A DNA stretch of 31,435 bases from an uncultured Syntrophomonas sp. (lineage in GTDB: Bacteria; Bacillota; Syntrophomonadia; Syntrophomonadales; Syntrophomonadaceae). A program made the position numbers and the translations under genes. The notes below the pieces were generated by a model. That model was given only the letters and a program-made list of their open reading frames with translations, ran no database searches and was not told the DNA's origin. The DNA is taken from NCBI GenBank assembly GCA_964589135.1, contig CAZPSR010000002.1, positions 1 through 31,435 on the forward strand, in the 5' to 3' direction. The stretch's first letter is position 1, and every line of letters starts with the position of its first letter. Of this stretch, positions 17,255-29,980 are shown piece by piece.

Positions 17255-17283
17255 AATAACTTGGGGTCTGACCCCGAGTTATT
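17255..17283. repeat. Family A 29-bp palindrome, copy 1 (between divergent moaE and CoA-transferase)
   Basis: AATAACTTGGGGTC-T-GACCCCGAGTTATT. Arms extend to 17252-17286. Confidence 0.92.
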
Positions 17284-17289
17284 GTTATG

Positions 17290-17305
17290 GTGCGCCCGGC
17301 ATGGG
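17290..17305 (+). mobile_element. 16-nt stub matching the 5' end of a group IIC intron (GTGCGCCCGGCATGGG)
   Basis: Matches the recalled IIC 5' consensus GTGYGCCCGGCATGGG and lies 3 nt after a hairpin, the known IIC target context. Similarity stops after 16 nt. Confidence 0.5.
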
Positions 17306-17367
17306 ATACTGTTTTGAGCGTGGCTTAAATCAAAGACCCTGGCAATAGGTCATTTTGCATATAAGCC

Positions 17368-17397
17368 TTGAAAGCAGAATGACTTGTGTGTCATAAT
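17368..17397 (+). promoter_or_regulatory. Sigma-A-type promoter candidate for the CoA-transferase
   Basis: TTGAAA-N18-CATAAT with TG in the extended -10 position. Confidence 0.45.
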
Positions 17398-17436
17398 TTT
17401 AAAGAATGACTCCAAAATCATCTATGAGGTGGATAA

Positions 17437-18732
17437 ATGAATTACAAGAAGATGTATCAGAGCAAAGTAGTAACGATTGAGGAAGCCTTACAGCAGGTTA
17501 AGAGTGGGCAGGAGATTGTTTGCAGCCTGCTTGCTTGTGAACCCGTAAGCCTTCTGAGCCAGCTCCATACTATTAAAGACCGAATAGAAGACGTATCAGT
17601 AGTTCATGCTAATATGCTCGGTGAATATGAGTTCTTTATGAATCCTGCAATGAAGAAGCATTTTTTGCTTAATAGCTGGTTTTATTCTCAGGGGCCGCGA
17701 AAAGCCCATTCCGATGAAATGGTTTCCTATGTTCCCAGCCAATTGCATGAATTCAGCCGTCGGAGGATGTCCTACCGAAAACCGGATATTTTTCTGGGTT
17801 GTGCTTCTCCGATGGATAAGCATGGCTGCTTTTCCCTTTCCTTGTCCACGGTTATGGAAAAGGATTTTGTGGAAAATGCGGATAAGGTAATCTTAGAAGT
17901 GAGCCCTCATTTTCCCCGTACTTTTGGCGATACTCATGTACATATTTCTCAGGTCGATTATATTCTGGAAACTAATCGAGAAGTGCCTACAGTGGAGCCA
18001 GCTGAATTGACTGAGAAAGATCGTTTAATAGGGGGCTTTGCTGCTGATTTAATTGAAGACGGTTCTACTATTCAGGTTGGTTTTGGCAGTATTCCCGGTG
18101 CCATTGCCCAAAGTTTAAAAGGCAAAAAGGATTTGGGTGTACATTCGGAAGTTTTCAGTGAAAGCCTGGTCGACCTTTATGAAGCAGGGGCCATTAATAA
18201 CAGCAAAAAGACTATATTTAAAGACAAGTTTGTGGCCAATGTTGCCCTGGGCAGCAGGCGTTTATATGATTTCGTCGATGAGAATATGGCAGTAGCCTTT
18301 CATCGTGCCAGCCTGGTCAATGACCCGGCGATAATAGGCCGGAATTATAAAATGGTGTCAATGAATGCAGCATTGGAAATGGACCTTACCGGTCAGTGCT
18401 GTGCTGAATCAATAGGATCACAGCAATTCAGCGGCACCGGAGGGCATAAGGAATTTATCATGGGTTCTCAGCGTTCGCCTGGCGGGAAATCGATAATAAC
18501 TTTTTATTCTACTACAAAAGGAGATAGTGTATCCCGGATTGTACCCCATTTTACCCCGGGGACTATTGTAACTACTTCCCGGGTAGATGTTGATTATGTA
18601 GTTACCGAATATGGCGTGGCCAGTTTAAGCGGGCGGTCAGTCAGGGAGCGAGTCCAGGAATTAATCAGCATTGCCCACCCTAATTTCCGCGACTATCTAA
18701 AAAGTGAAGCCAGAAGGAACATGATCTGGTAG
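17437..18732 (+). CDS. Acetyl-CoA hydrolase/transferase family protein (family I CoA-transferase, 4-hydroxybutyrate/butyrate CoA-transferase-like), 431 aa
   Basis: MDKHGCFSLSLS, LIEDGSTIQVGFGSIP, DLGVHSE (catalytic Glu position), DLTGQCCAESIG, VDYVVTEYGVASL, LISIAHPNFR. RBS GAGGTGG. Confidence 0.92.
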   Translation: MNYKKMYQSKVVTIEEALQQVKSGQEIVCSLLACEPVSLLSQLHTIKDRIEDVSVVHANMLGEYEFFMNPAMKKHFLLNSWFYSQGPRKAHSDEMVSYVPSQLHEFSRRRMSYRKPDIFLGCASPMDKHGCFSLSLSTVMEKDFVENADKVILEVSPHFPRTFGDTHVHISQVDYILETNREVPTVEPAELTEKDRLIGGFAADLIEDGSTIQVGFGSIPGAIAQSLKGKKDLGVHSEVFSESLVDLYEAGAINNSKKTIFKDKFVANVALGSRRLYDFVDENMAVAFHRASLVNDPAIIGRNYKMVSMNAALEMDLTGQCCAESIGSQQFSGTGGHKEFIMGSQRSPGGKSIITFYSTTKGDSVSRIVPHFTPGTIVTTSRVDVDYVVTEYGVASLSGRSVRERVQELISIAHPNFRDYLKSEARRNMIW

Positions 18733-27484: not shown

Positions 27485-27609
27485 TAGCTGGGGTTAATTT
27501 AGAAAATGCTCGGTAAGTAAAGCAAGCGACCGGCTTGATAATCTACCCGCATGTGATACGACCTTTTCTGGCCTTTGCAAAAAGGAGGGAAAGGATATAT
27601 TGTTATTTG

Positions 27610-27638
27610 CCTTATTGGGGGTCAGACCCCGAGTTATT
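27610..27638. repeat. Family A palindrome, copy 8 (left arm degenerate)
   Basis: ...GGGGTC-A-GACCCCGAGTTATT, with the core and right arm intact. Confidence 0.8.
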
Positions 27639-27782
27639 TTATTGCAGAATGTTTGGCCTTTCCTGTTAGTCTATAGAAATTTCTGCGTATTGAGTATTAA
27701 AGGCTTACCTATTATCAGCCAAGGGCTATTGACCATAGTCATTGGCAGCAGAATTAGGATATGAAAAAGGAGAGTGGTTAAT

Positions 27783-29942
27783 TTGGTCACTAAGGGTTCC
27801 AAGTTTGTGGTTTGGGTTGTTTTAACGATGTTTATGGTGAGCATTGTACCAGCCATGGCTCTAGCTGAGAGCAGTCCGGGCATTACTCTGGAGCAGGCGG
27901 TTAAGAAAGTAAAAAGCCATTTTGAAGTACCTGCTGAGTATAAGGATTTTAGATCTGGTTTTGCTAATTACGATAACCGACAGCTATGGAATTTGAACTG
28001 GAGTGCAGTTCAGGAACCGGGGGGCAAAGGGGGCAGCTTCAATGCCCAGGTGGATGCCCAAACCGGTGAAATAGTAAGTATGTCAACCTGGCAGCAAGAT
28101 GGTCCGGATAAGAACCGGGAAGCCAAGATCAGCCCCTCTGAAGCCCGGGAGCTGGCAGCTGCTTTTTTAAATGAGGTATCTTCCCAGCGGGTGCCCTATC
28201 TGAAAGAGATGCCGGATAATCAAACCATGAATCTGAGCAGTTACGGTCCCAGTACTTATCAGATGCGTTGGCAGCGGGTAGAGAACCAGATCCCGGTGGA
28301 GGGCGATGGTGCTGAGGTAGAGATTAATTTAAGCAATGGGCAGGTATCCAGCTACAACTTGCGGTGGAGCAAATTAGAAATGCCTGATCCCAGCGGAATT
28401 ATCCCCCAGCAGGAAGCGGAACAGGCATTTAAGGAGGCTGAAATGCTGGAACTGCAATATTTACTGAATAACAGAATCCGGCCCTTAGCCTCGGATTCTG
28501 ACCAAAACCAGGTGGCCCTGGTTTATCGTTTGGTGCATAGGTCATCCGGGATTATCGATGCGATGACTGGTGAGCCCTGGGAGAGTGAGCAGCAATATTG
28601 GCTTAGAAATGAAGCGGCAATGGATGCAGCAGCAGGCGGGGCTGCGGAGAAATCAGCAATTGAATTAACCCCGGAGGAAGAGAGGGAGATAGGCCAGAAT
28701 GCGGATTTGCTAAGCCAAGATCAGGCAATGGCCGCTGTGATCAAGTGGATAAAGGTACCACCAGGAGCTCTGCTTCAATCAGCTAATCTGGAAAAAGACT
28801 GGCAGGACCCTAATCTGCGAGTTTGGGATATGCACTGGTCAACCCAAAAGAGTGAAGGCTATTCTTACTTATGGGCTCGGGTAAATGCGTCCACCGGAGA
28901 AGTACTGAGTTTTAACCTGAGTTATCCCCGTACCGGTAAGGAGAAATTCACTTTGGATAGTGAAGATGCCCGCCAAATTGCAGAAGCCTTTTTAAAGCAG
29001 ATACAGCCGGAACGTTTGGCCCAGGTCAGCTTCGAAGATAATCAGGAAAGCGGGATTAGACCGATACAAGCAGATGATAGCCCGATTTGGAGCCTGCAAT
29101 GGACCCGCCTGGTAAACGGGGTAAAATGTCCCAACAACGGATTTAATCTAAGTGTTGATCGCCATACCCGCCAAGTAGTATCTTTTACCTTAAATTGGTC
29201 GGAAAAGGACTTTCCTGCTCCAGATGGTGTTTTGAGCATGGATCAAGCAGAACAAAGGTTTCTGAATAATACTCCCCTTACCCTGGTTTATTCGCCGGTC
29301 TATGGACAGGATCGGGTGGAAAGCTTCCAGCTGTTTTATGCCCCTCGGGATCCCCAACAGAGAATAAACTCTGTTATTATGGATGCCTTTAATGGTGAGC
29401 CTCTGGATCGACAGGGAAAACCCTGGTCAGAAGAGCCCCAGCCTTACACTTATGACGATATAGCCGGACATTTTGCGGAGAAAGAGATCAGTATGGTAGG
29501 AAAAGCCGGGTTTATGGGGGAATATGCTAGTTCTTTTCATCCCCAGGAAAACATTAATGCTGCCTCTCTGTTCCGGGTTTTGATCGGGACTCGTAATGGC
29601 TTGCACAGTGTCCAAAATTACAGCGATGATGAGGTTTTAATCCAGGCCAGGAATATGGGGTGGTTAAAGGAGACTATCGCTAAAGATGCTCCAGTAAGCC
29701 GAAGTCTTCTGGCTAAAGTGCTTATCCGCTCCCTGGGATTGGATTACCTGGCCGAAGTCCCGGGGATCTACCGATATCCCTACCAGGATAAGGTGAGTTC
29801 CGATATGGAAGGCTATGCTACCCTTTGCTGGGGATTAGGGATTATTAAGGGTGATGGAAAGAATTTTAGCCCTGATAAACCGACCAGCCGGGCTGAAGCA
29901 GCCGTGGTGGCGGTTCGACTGCTCAGCCAGGGTAACAGGTAA
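27783..29942 (+). CDS. Secreted protein with repeated PepSY-like/YcdB-YcdC-type modules and C-terminal SLH domains (~719 aa)
   Basis: Signal peptide ending AMALA. Recurring W.L.W...VDA.TGE modules. YDDIAGHFAEKEI and SRAEAAVVAVRL SLH motifs. TTG 27783 is preferred over GTG 27774 on RBS spacing. Confidence 0.8.
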   Translation: MVTKGSKFVVWVVLTMFMVSIVPAMALAESSPGITLEQAVKKVKSHFEVPAEYKDFRSGFANYDNRQLWNLNWSAVQEPGGKGGSFNAQVDAQTGEIVSMSTWQQDGPDKNREAKISPSEARELAAAFLNEVSSQRVPYLKEMPDNQTMNLSSYGPSTYQMRWQRVENQIPVEGDGAEVEINLSNGQVSSYNLRWSKLEMPDPSGIIPQQEAEQAFKEAEMLELQYLLNNRIRPLASDSDQNQVALVYRLVHRSSGIIDAMTGEPWESEQQYWLRNEAAMDAAAGGAAEKSAIELTPEEEREIGQNADLLSQDQAMAAVIKWIKVPPGALLQSANLEKDWQDPNLRVWDMHWSTQKSEGYSYLWARVNASTGEVLSFNLSYPRTGKEKFTLDSEDARQIAEAFLKQIQPERLAQVSFEDNQESGIRPIQADDSPIWSLQWTRLVNGVKCPNNGFNLSVDRHTRQVVSFTLNWSEKDFPAPDGVLSMDQAEQRFLNNTPLTLVYSPVYGQDRVESFQLFYAPRDPQQRINSVIMDAFNGEPLDRQGKPWSEEPQPYTYDDIAGHFAEKEISMVGKAGFMGEYASSFHPQENINAASLFRVLIGTRNGLHSVQNYSDDEVLIQARNMGWLKETIAKDAPVSRSLLAKVLIRSLGLDYLAEVPGIYRYPYQDKVSSDMEGYATLCWGLGIIKGDGKNFSPDKPTSRAEAAVVAVRLLSQGNR

Positions 29943-29951
29943 CAGCTACAA

Positions 29952-29980
29952 AATAACTCGGGATCAGACCCCGAGTTATT
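29952..29980. repeat. Family A palindrome, copy 9
   Basis: AATAACTCGGGATC-A-GACCCCGAGTTATT. Confidence 0.92.

Follow-up and report, generated by a model that had tools for sequence, protein, structure and literature searches.

A dense family of 29-bp intergenic palindromes in an uncultured Syntrophomonas, a probable REP/RAYT-type system of Clostridia

Introduction

Repetitive extragenic palindromic (REP) elements and the REP-associated tyrosine transposases (RAYTs) that accompany them have been worked out almost entirely in Proteobacteria. The closest described systems are the REP elements of Escherichia coli with the transposase TnpA-REP and the REPIN-RAYT systems of Pseudomonas, and the IS200/IS605 insertion sequences are a further point of reference. 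Of the RAYT groups, only groups 2 and 3, from gamma-proteobacteria, show a strong link to abundant repeats, that of the group reaching into Clostridia being weak (PMC5581495). A survey of small multi-copy stem-loops carrying GTAG or CGTC tags leaves Firmicutes unmentioned (PMC3733652). Here we analyse a stretch of 31,435 nt, referred to as the window, from an uncultured Syntrophomonas sp. (positions 1 to 31,435 of contig CAZPSR010000002.1, assembly GCA_964589135.1), in which nine copies of a 29-bp palindrome lie between the genes of its right-hand part. In the literature that we searched, no paper links Syntrophomonas to REPs or RAYTs. Comparison with related metagenome contigs suggests that the palindromes form a dense REP family in obligately syntrophic Clostridia, with a RAYT-type transposase encoded next to the same repeat in relatives.

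Results

Nine copies of a 29-bp palindrome

The repeat is a 29-bp palindrome with a single central base, AATAACTCGGGGTC-W-GACCCCGAGTTATT, present in nine copies in the window. A search with the pattern AATAACTCGGGGTCWGACCCCGAGTTATT at up to three mismatches returned eight sites (17255, 18746, 21476, 22171, 23077, 25006, 26087 and 29952) where none were expected from 100 shuffles, and a match to the 19-nt core at 27615-27633 revealed the ninth, the full copy of which spans 27610-27638. These searches reproduce the nine copies, their positions and the consensus given in an initial annotation of this DNA, and the copy sequences bear out its count of central bases: T at 17255, 21476, 22171 and 25006, with A in the remaining five. 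Eight copies differ from the consensus at zero to two positions, while the copy at 27610 has a decayed left arm (five mismatches) and an intact right arm. Neither further full copies nor lone half-sites were found across the 31.4 kb at up to three mismatches per half-site. Neighbouring copies are 0.7-2.7 kb apart, at a density of nine copies per 12.7 kb. Both an alignment with 60-nt flanks and a position matrix of 83 copies from many loci give the unit a sharp 29-bp boundary, and the 29-mer is matched by no family in Rfam.

Each of the two strands can form a 13-bp stem closed by a 3-nt loop, with folding energies of -19 kcal/mol for RNA (z -5.8) and -13.1 kcal/mol for DNA and z overall about -6 to -8; the unit is thus a short palindrome with a stable stem-loop, within the 20-40 bp expected of REPs. 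In the copy at 23077, pair 9/21 is changed on both sides and the stem is therefore kept. Compensated stem changes are also found at L187:187 and in the variant repeat of contig L305 (pair 8/22), and the remaining variant window copies carry one transition each.

Complementarity between the two flanks continues beyond the 29-mer for 1.25 nt on average, compared with 0.47 nt by chance, and reaches at least 3 nt in 14 copies where 2.2 are expected. At the 3' end of a phosphoglucose-isomerase gene (L171:1299-1347), the arrangement is ctattaggta-REP-tacctaatag, in which the right 10 nt are an inverted copy of the left, coding sequence. The empty allele at L162:11430-11445, in a gene 97 % identical to that of L171, has AATAA in common with it and is unrelated beyond. 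Insertion of the repeat into the loop of an older hairpin, an idea prompted by the complementary flanks, was rejected, as the empty L162 allele has no such hairpin. Extra half-arms 0-3 nt from full copies, or copies nested within the arms of an older copy, are common (L151:5781-5831, L305:1089-1129, L180:5376-5424, L008:3378-3442 and L154).

A transposase gene bracketed by the repeat in relatives

On contig L151 (also L199), six copies within 15.6 kb are accompanied by an open reading frame (ORF; L151:4859-5791) that matches Pfam Y1_Tnp (E 1.2e-10) and NCBIfam NF047646, 'REP-associated tyrosine transposase' (63.5 bits). The protein contains an HUH motif, NHFHI, and a tyrosine motif, RYIHRNPV, and NH(F/Y)H and RYIHxNP are invariant in 20 homologues. 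The homologue family consists of proteins of 270-327 residues from Clostridia in which an N-terminal catalytic domain and a C-terminal helix-turn-helix (HTH) are conserved, and some members have already been labelled RayT or REP-associated transposase by JGI and NCBI. A search of the PDB with the single transposase sequence gave no match, and the family profile has its best match in 4ER8, E. coli TnpA-REP. The same structure is the best Foldseek match of an AlphaFold model (pLDDT 81.6; 4er8_A, TM 0.70, rmsd 2.7 Å), ahead of IS200/IS605 transposases; IS200/IS605 TnpA fits the model with an rmsd of 6-11 Å. Two homologues show weak secondary matches to an IS200 model.

In L151 a full copy lies ~90 nt upstream of the gene, and the stop codon falls within a partial left arm that is separated by 2 nt from another full copy. 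The transposase gene is bracketed by its own repeat in L151/L199, L218, L219, L220/L221 and L305, one copy preceding it by ~80-95 nt and the other standing at the stop. In L151 and L305 a partial left arm ahead of the full copy holds the stop codon; in the other three loci (L218, L219 and L220/L221) TAA starts the downstream copy. A RAYT gene flanked by the repeat, which the initial annotation had recommended looking for, is thus found with the same 29-mer in L151/L199 and L219. No tnpB lies next to the transposase gene in the annotated contigs, and the genes that neighbour it differ among L151, L219 and L220. Among representative genomes, a search for proteins closely related to the transposase returned distant homologues only, of at most 46 % identity, none of them with the repeat core.

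All three longer RAYT contigs also contain class I cyclic di-GMP (c-di-GMP-I) riboswitches (L151:8632-8720 and 10991-11077; L219:6803-6890; L220:12074-12157). These adjoin glycosyltransferase and surface-protein genes, and the repeat-dense RAYT regions look like cell-envelope loci.

Co-variation of transposase and repeat

The repeat changes stepwise as the transposase diverges, identities being given relative to the L151 protein (100 %). At 72 % identity, L219 has the same 29-mer, with six copies in 10.8 kb, and at 71 % L218 has a 1-nt variant (..GGGGTCAGGCCCC..). At 60 % the repeat of L305 is AATAACTTGGGGTCAGACCCCAAGTTATT, in which pair 8/22 is the one changed on both sides. At 50 % the repeat of L220/L221, AATAACTTGGTGCCTGTCCCCAAGTTATT, keeps the same 10-bp outer arms around a new core and is present in eight copies in 12.4 kb, in both orientations. 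Beyond this range the repeats are unrelated: a Syntrophomonas metagenome-assembled genome (MAG) with a transposase of 39 % identity (L223:4710-5903) has three copies of a 55-60-bp palindrome, and a Desulfofundulus MAG with one of 41 % (L224:4921-5847) has two copies of a 28-nt repeat, GTGCCWGGCACTTAACTTATTAACTTAT. Of all the arguments for linking protein and repeat, this stepwise co-divergence is the strongest.

Occurrence in other genomes

The exact 29-mer occurs in 14 stretches from eight Syntrophomonas or Syntrophomonadaceae assemblies and nowhere else among GTDB representatives (one genome per species). The 23-nt core is found in 58 metagenome stretches, most of them with unrelated flanks, about a dozen of which make up a high-GC family; viral contigs contain no copies. 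Local density in three related contigs is 6-8 copies per 11-16 kb. In k=31 Logan assemblies of the window organism (L015, L016 and L214-L217; runs SRR30309640, SRR11702770 and SRR10498319), contigs of 1.1-2 kb start and stop at REPs and span only copies with a private mismatch. That they end at repeats fits the presence of many identical copies in the genome of the window organism, and the same assemblies independently confirm the junctions at 17255, 18746 and 22171. REP copies therefore fragment short-read assemblies of Syntrophomonas.

The tip of the hairpin, a 19-23-nt segment of the form (AA)CTCGGGGTC-W-GACCCCGAG(TT), is also present in bacteria of several phyla with 60-75 % GC (L017-L070 generally). 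There it sits in longer palindromes with lineage-specific outer arms, for example GTGCCCAAC...GTTGGGCAC, GGGGTCAGGT...ACCTGACCCC and GAATCGAAAT...ATTTCGATTC. At L178:42-916, L020:3903-4735 and L028:2125-3046 the tip brackets RAYT-like genes whose products are 32-33 % identical to the Syntrophomonas protein, and the layout is as in Syntrophomonas, with a copy ~70-90 nt upstream and a copy at the stop; the hosts are high-GC soil Actinomycetota and one Planctomycetia genome. The hairpin core is absent from 80 other RAYT loci. Part of the GC-rich core matches may be due to chance; the transposase-linked ones are not.

Gain, loss and breakpoints at repeat edges

Gain, loss and REARRANGEMENT were judged from the ygiQ loci and from the ends of homology blocks between related metagenome contigs. 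In ~0.94 Mb of related loci there are orthologues of no window gene besides ygiQ and a gene remnant at 25950, and synteny is therefore testable at these two alone. The ygiQ loci of three relatives (87, 81 and 76 % amino-acid identity; ~21 kb each) contain no copy and no half-site, so that vertical conservation at all sites, a possibility raised in the initial annotation, does not hold. These relatives keep the order ygiQ-hflX-lytR-flavin reductase, and the window has unrelated genes after ygiQ. The window ygiQ (radical SAM; 23235..25010, plus strand) takes its last codons and stop from the junction with the REP: homology of its product ends at '...LIGSGA', after which the frame ends inside the copy at 25006, giving a protein of 591 residues, 18-32 fewer than the 609-623 found in the closest relatives shown in detail. 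The truncated ygiQ is also present in L214 and L215. At the second locus, a frameshifted remnant (25950..26086, plus strand) retains the last ~45 codons of a homologue of a 238-aa protein of L011 and ends in '...EQFEL' and a stop codon at the copy at 26087. L011 has an intact version of the gene, with the same repeat after the same stop, and the left side of the window copy is orthologous to that of the REP at L011:5680.

Across related contigs, blocks of homology often take in the repeat and break off at its outer edge: 14 of the 165 internal ends of homology blocks fall within 3 bp of a REP edge, compared with 0.42 expected; L009 against L175/L197/L185, L002 against L010, and L187 against L027/L180 provide examples. 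At sites with orthologous sequence on both sides the repeat has been kept, and such copies are identical or one base apart while their flanks differ by 5-23 %; the family is therefore not merely young, its sequence being held constant. This qualifies the initial description of a dense, young REP-like family, the REP-like character of which stands and the simple youth of which does not.

At the site in L193 that is orthologous to the consensus REP at L174:3939 (flanks 81 % identical), the sequence AATAACTTGGCGCACGGCCTGGTCCCATGTTATT has the same outer ends around a different, non-palindromic interior of 23 nt. In contigs that are ~97 % identical, the orthologous REPs at L181:3402 and at L160:~2523/L173 differ in the centre (A versus T), in a 2-nt arm deletion and in a 16-nt indel at the left edge, which points to re-insertion or conversion at an occupied site.

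Placement relative to genes and transcription

All nine window copies are outside gene bodies, six of them no more than 13 nt from a stop codon. The initial statement that no copy lies inside an ORF body is right, with the correction that the copy at 25006 holds the ygiQ stop codon. Two further statements on placement hold in part: there is one copy in each of nine consecutive inter-operon gaps, but none in the 427-nt gap at 26699-27124 nor left of 17.2 kb, and of three supposedly divergent pairs only those at 17255 and 22171 are truly divergent spacers, the copy at 26087 directly following the stop of a decayed gene fragment. When 57 copies were classed by context, 18 fell in convergent, 30 in co-directional and 9 in divergent gaps (48/57 convergent or co-directional), and in 12 of these 57 the TAA of the REP is itself the stop codon of the gene. 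Recurrent neighbours of the repeat are ordinary envelope, polysaccharide, S-layer homology (SLH) and sensor-kinase genes, not mobility genes.

With only the inner 8-9 bp paired, the hairpin leaves a tail of UUAUU(U); with the full stem formed, the next base is T in 35 of 83 copies, and a scan for the terminator consensus flags weakened copies only. The idea that the central base tracks transcription was rejected: A is on the sense strand in all five unambiguous window cases, but the ratio over all co-directional copies is 18:11, which is not significant.

Copies and neighbouring features of the window

The leftmost copy (17255..17283; central T) carries C8T, which leaves a T.G pair, and is located in a divergent spacer, 19 nt upstream of where a minus-strand MoaE-like ORF starts. 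The second (18746..18774; central A; G11A, uncompensated) is in a convergent gap, 13 nt past the stop of an acetyl-CoA hydrolase/transferase gene. At 18796..18833, 21 nt from this copy, an A7-stem-loop-T6 hairpin reads as a bidirectional terminator-like structure of the convergent pair, in agreement with the separate true terminator that had been noted there. The third copy (21476..21504; central T) is an exact consensus, 1 nt past the stop of a minus-strand XdhC-like gene and 37 nt before the start of metN. The fourth (22171..22199; central T; G22A) occupies a divergent spacer, 122 nt from the start of the XdhC-like gene and 270 nt from the next plus-strand gene, and near it a separate hairpin with a T-run is present at 22112-22135. 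The fifth (23077..23105; central A), in which pair 9/21 has gone from G-C to A-T, follows the stop of a 200-aa ORF by 4 nt and precedes ygiQ by 129 nt. The sixth (25006..25034; central T), again an exact consensus, provides the ygiQ stop as TAA at 25008-25010 and is 12 nt from the stop of a convergent PdaC-like gene. The seventh (26087..26115; central A; T3C) directly follows the stop of the gene remnant, 43 nt before an isochorismatase gene. The eighth (27610..27638), with centre and right arm intact, lies 125 nt past an MpsC-like gene and 135 nt before a PepSY/SLH gene, and the ninth (29952..29980; central A; G12A) is 9 nt past the stop of the gene for the 722-aa PepSY/SLH protein.

The window genes match Syntrophomonas homologues of chromosomal type and include a LytTR two-component pair. 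From 17.2 kb on, the genes are mutually unrelated (acetyl-CoA transferase, metQIN, XdhC-like, ygiQ, PdaC-like, isochorismatase, MpsC-like and PepSY/SLH). Eight consecutive units, each a whole gene or operon and one of them a three-gene operon, are bracketed by copies and have mixed orientation. The left part of the window is occupied by two convergent genes for giant surface proteins, one of 2301 aa (406-7311, plus strand) with fn3/Big/CBM domains and SLH repeats, and one of 1896 aa (7775-13465, minus strand) with BspA-type leucine-rich repeats, Big_3 and SLH repeats; there are no REP copies in or between these two genes (406-13465). A third SLH protein gene (30525-31433, plus strand) runs off the right end.

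The window also contains traces of group II introns. A fragment comprising domains 1-4 (7333-7563, plus strand; RF02005, 108.9 bits) begins 22 nt past the stop of the 2301-aa gene and is probably a relic, as no reverse-transcriptase ORF follows; homologous introns are found in L001/L184 and L155. Six nucleotides after the leftmost REP copy, a 16-nt stretch (17290..17305, plus strand; GTGCGCCCGGCATGGG) is identical to the 5' end of an intron in L159, the rest of which is missing from the window. In L159 this group II intron (3177-3458; 5' GTGCG..., with an Rfam match to D1-D4 at 3295-3458) begins 4 nt after a REP copy. It seems that such group II introns land at the REP hairpin, much as some bacterial introns do at terminators.

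Discussion

Our results make it likely that the nine palindromes are a REP family of this uncultured Syntrophomonas and that the family belongs to a REP/RAYT-type system of Clostridia. Of the two explanations offered in the initial annotation, a REP-like family with a RAYT/HUH transposase gains support from the flanked gene in relatives and from the co-variation of protein and repeat, and a chromosome-organising or protein-binding site finds no support.

We infer that the repeats are mobilised by the transposase, and likewise the strand and site of cleavage and the roles of the copies in termination and recombination. On the model of E. coli TnpA-REP and of IS200/IS605, the transposase would bind the hairpin in single-stranded DNA, for example in the lagging-strand template, and would cut and rejoin at the foot of the hairpin, thereby spreading or maintaining copies. 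New copies would land at AT-rich sites just past, or slightly inside, gene 3' ends, and may survive past stop codons because they do little harm there. In addition, the copies would probably serve as symmetric hairpins that stop or protect transcripts arriving from either side, and such a secondary terminator role is likely. Finally, the many identical 29-bp copies would become recombination joints; we propose that recombination between them could account both for gene order breaking exactly at copy edges and for the bracketed units found between 17.2 and 30 kb.

Several observations weigh against this interpretation. As had been noted initially, no mobilising gene is present in the window, which has no RAYT or Y1_Tnp gene among its genes, and the link is drawn from relatives in which the repeat is identical. 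The transposases of the Syntrophomonas clade score 63.5-74.9 bits against NF047646, under its equivalog cut-off of 80, which more distant homologues pass (P0196 with 80.3 bits and P0145 with 87.7 bits). The GTAG/CGTC tag is absent, the 83-copy matrix showing conserved AATAAC...GTTATT ends that are all paired and flanks without a tag. Inverted doublets or arrays, whether bacterial interspersed mosaic elements (BIMEs) or REPINs, do not occur in the window, and relatives have few doublets (L006 6835/6884, L161, L183 and L220 9814/9849). As judged by the asymmetric centre, the two copies on either side of the transposase gene have direct orientation in L218, L219 and L220 and inverted orientation (A/T) only in L151. 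A clean filled/empty pair differing by the 29 bp alone was not found among the related contigs, each presence/absence difference being accompanied by one-sided loss of homology, and breaks seen in metagenome contigs built from short reads could in some cases be assembly joins at the repeat. It is unlikely that assembly chimaeras are the whole cause of the breakpoints, since independent assemblies agree on junctions (L175/L197; L001/L184/L156; L015/L016/L216 with the window), and a truncated ygiQ and a frameshifted remnant are not what misjoins create. Transposase-driven movement of REPs has, to our knowledge, been shown in vivo for no system.

The direct orientation of the flanking hairpins is that of IS200/IS605 ends, the differing gene neighbours in L151, L219 and L220 imply that the unit may move, and two homologues have weak secondary matches to the IS200 model. 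An ordinary selfish IS200/IS605-type element, with the solo 29-mers as its decayed ends or miniature derivatives rather than as REPs of a domesticated RAYT, is nevertheless improbable: the best sequence and structure matches are to RAYT and not to TnpA, the protein is twice the size of TnpA with an added HTH domain and has no tnpB beside it, and the same hairpin stands at both ends of the gene. The solo copies, moreover, are single 29-bp hairpins and not left-end/right-end pairs, and they far outnumber the gene in every contig. Plain bidirectional intrinsic terminators, kept alike by selection with no dedicated spreading enzyme, are a quite improbable explanation, even though the strong GC-rich stem, the symmetric AAUAA/UUAUU shoulders, the closeness of six of the nine window copies to a stop codon and the under-representation of divergent spacers (9/57) would all be expected of them. 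Terminators arising independently would not end up with one and the same 29-nt sequence beside dozens of unrelated genes from at least eight species, and they leave the association and co-variation with the transposase unexplained. The relatives lack copies at the orthologous ygiQ locus, a canonical terminator already stands beside 18746, and the copies at 17255 and 22171, in divergent spacers, are found upstream of genes. With the full stem formed, the U-rich part would also be absorbed, T being next in just 35 of 83 copies, and the central base shows no significant bias with the direction of transcription (18:11). That termination alone is insufficient, as the initial annotation argued, is also apparent from copies that vary between relatives, truncate a gene and adjoin independent terminators.

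Crossover sites of a site-specific recombinase, with an 11-7-11 layout like that of dif or lox, would turn the repeat-bounded units into cassettes that are inverted, excised and re-inserted. The eight consecutive bracketed units and the synteny breaks exactly at copy edges are what such sites would leave behind, and the size and symmetry of the repeat would fit a recombinase core site, but neither the window nor the annotated repeat-dense contigs have a tyrosine or serine recombinase gene, the same unit was not found in both orientations between the same copies, and the gene consistently associated with the repeat encodes a single-strand HUH transposase; we regard this explanation as very improbable. 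An integron cassette array was rejected in view of the missing recombinase gene, the mixed orientation of the units and the contrast between a perfect 29-bp palindrome and attC sites of 57-141 bp with RYYYAAC...GTTRRRY and extra-helical bases, the cassettes of such arrays being promoterless and co-oriented. We give hardly any credence to a role of the copies in DNA uptake or as sites bound by a nucleoid or regulatory protein. Conservation of the sequence across species beyond that of its flanks would be in keeping with either, and inverted pairs of uptake sequences act as terminators in Neisseria. Single half-sites are, however, absent in and between the window genes, the orthologous regions of relatives have no copies, the compensated stem changes point to a folded strand and not to a half-site code in duplex DNA, and the association with the transposase would go unexplained. 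Uptake sequences in particular were rejected, as half-sites occur solely within the nine palindromes whereas an uptake sequence is a short single motif that is frequent within genes as well. The reasons given for these rivals also led us to discard shufflon and parS-like readings.

Within the favoured REP/RAYT explanation, a further-reaching and rather doubtful possibility is that the repeats are more than passengers. A transposase with a duplex-binding HTH that acts preferentially near its own gene, or recombination between copies, would then make stretches such as 17.2-30 kb into cassette-like plastic zones, with genes and operons being shuffled, truncated and replaced where the repeats end, and the 19-23-nt tip would be the recognition determinant of a repeat/transposase lineage that crosses phyla. 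The latter suggestion follows from the occurrence of the same tip beside the 32-33 % identical RAYT genes, with an outer stem that varies with genome composition.

For the REP/RAYT system as a whole, the natural transposase/repeat pairs, which range from 100 to 50 % identity and include a compensated stem change and a core swap, amount to a ready-made specificity experiment. The points at which strains differ in gene order and in gene ends are marked by the repeats, which annotators are prone to mistake for terminators.

Comparison with known systems

The system resembles REP/BIME and TnpA-REP (RayT/YafM; 4ER8) of E. coli in its short extragenic hairpins, placed mostly past gene 3' ends, and in a Y1 HUH gene that is bracketed by the repeats; the HUH and YxxxNP motifs of the two proteins align, and the predicted fold has its best match there. 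In E. coli, however, the REP palindrome is imperfect, has a GTAG head that is left unpaired and often occurs in BIME arrays, whereas that of Syntrophomonas is perfect, tagless and mostly solitary. E. coli TnpA-REP has 165 aa, and the Syntrophomonas-type protein has ~310 aa with a C-terminal helix-turn-helix and a stop codon in the repeat arm. As in the REPIN-RAYT systems of Pseudomonas (PMC3116915, PMC5581495), the repeat is specific to a transposase lineage, co-diverges with it and persists for long; the mobile unit in Pseudomonas is an inverted REP doublet of ~100 bp, whereas single 29-bp hairpins dominate in Syntrophomonas and doublets are occasional.

IS200/IS605 elements (IS608, ISDra2) have the HUH Y1 fold and direct hairpins at both gene ends in common with the Syntrophomonas system and, by analogy, may share with it recognition of a single-strand hairpin. 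They differ in a TnpA of ~130-150 aa, distinct left and right ends, frequent association with tnpB and multiple full copies, none of which is seen in Syntrophomonas. Inverted flanking REPs, a defining feature of the classical families (Nunvar 2010), are not the rule here, the flanking copies being direct in three of four loci. The GTAG/CGTC super-families are, like the Syntrophomonas repeat, small multi-copy stem-loops, and their GTAG families are linked to RAYT genes (PMC3733652). The CGTC families have stems of 8-9 bp and loops of 4-5 nt, compared with a stem of 13-14 bp, a loop of 1-3 nt and no tag in Syntrophomonas, and the family belongs with the 'untagged' repeats of that survey. It is a known kind of repeat in an undescribed form, in a bacterial group without a previous report.

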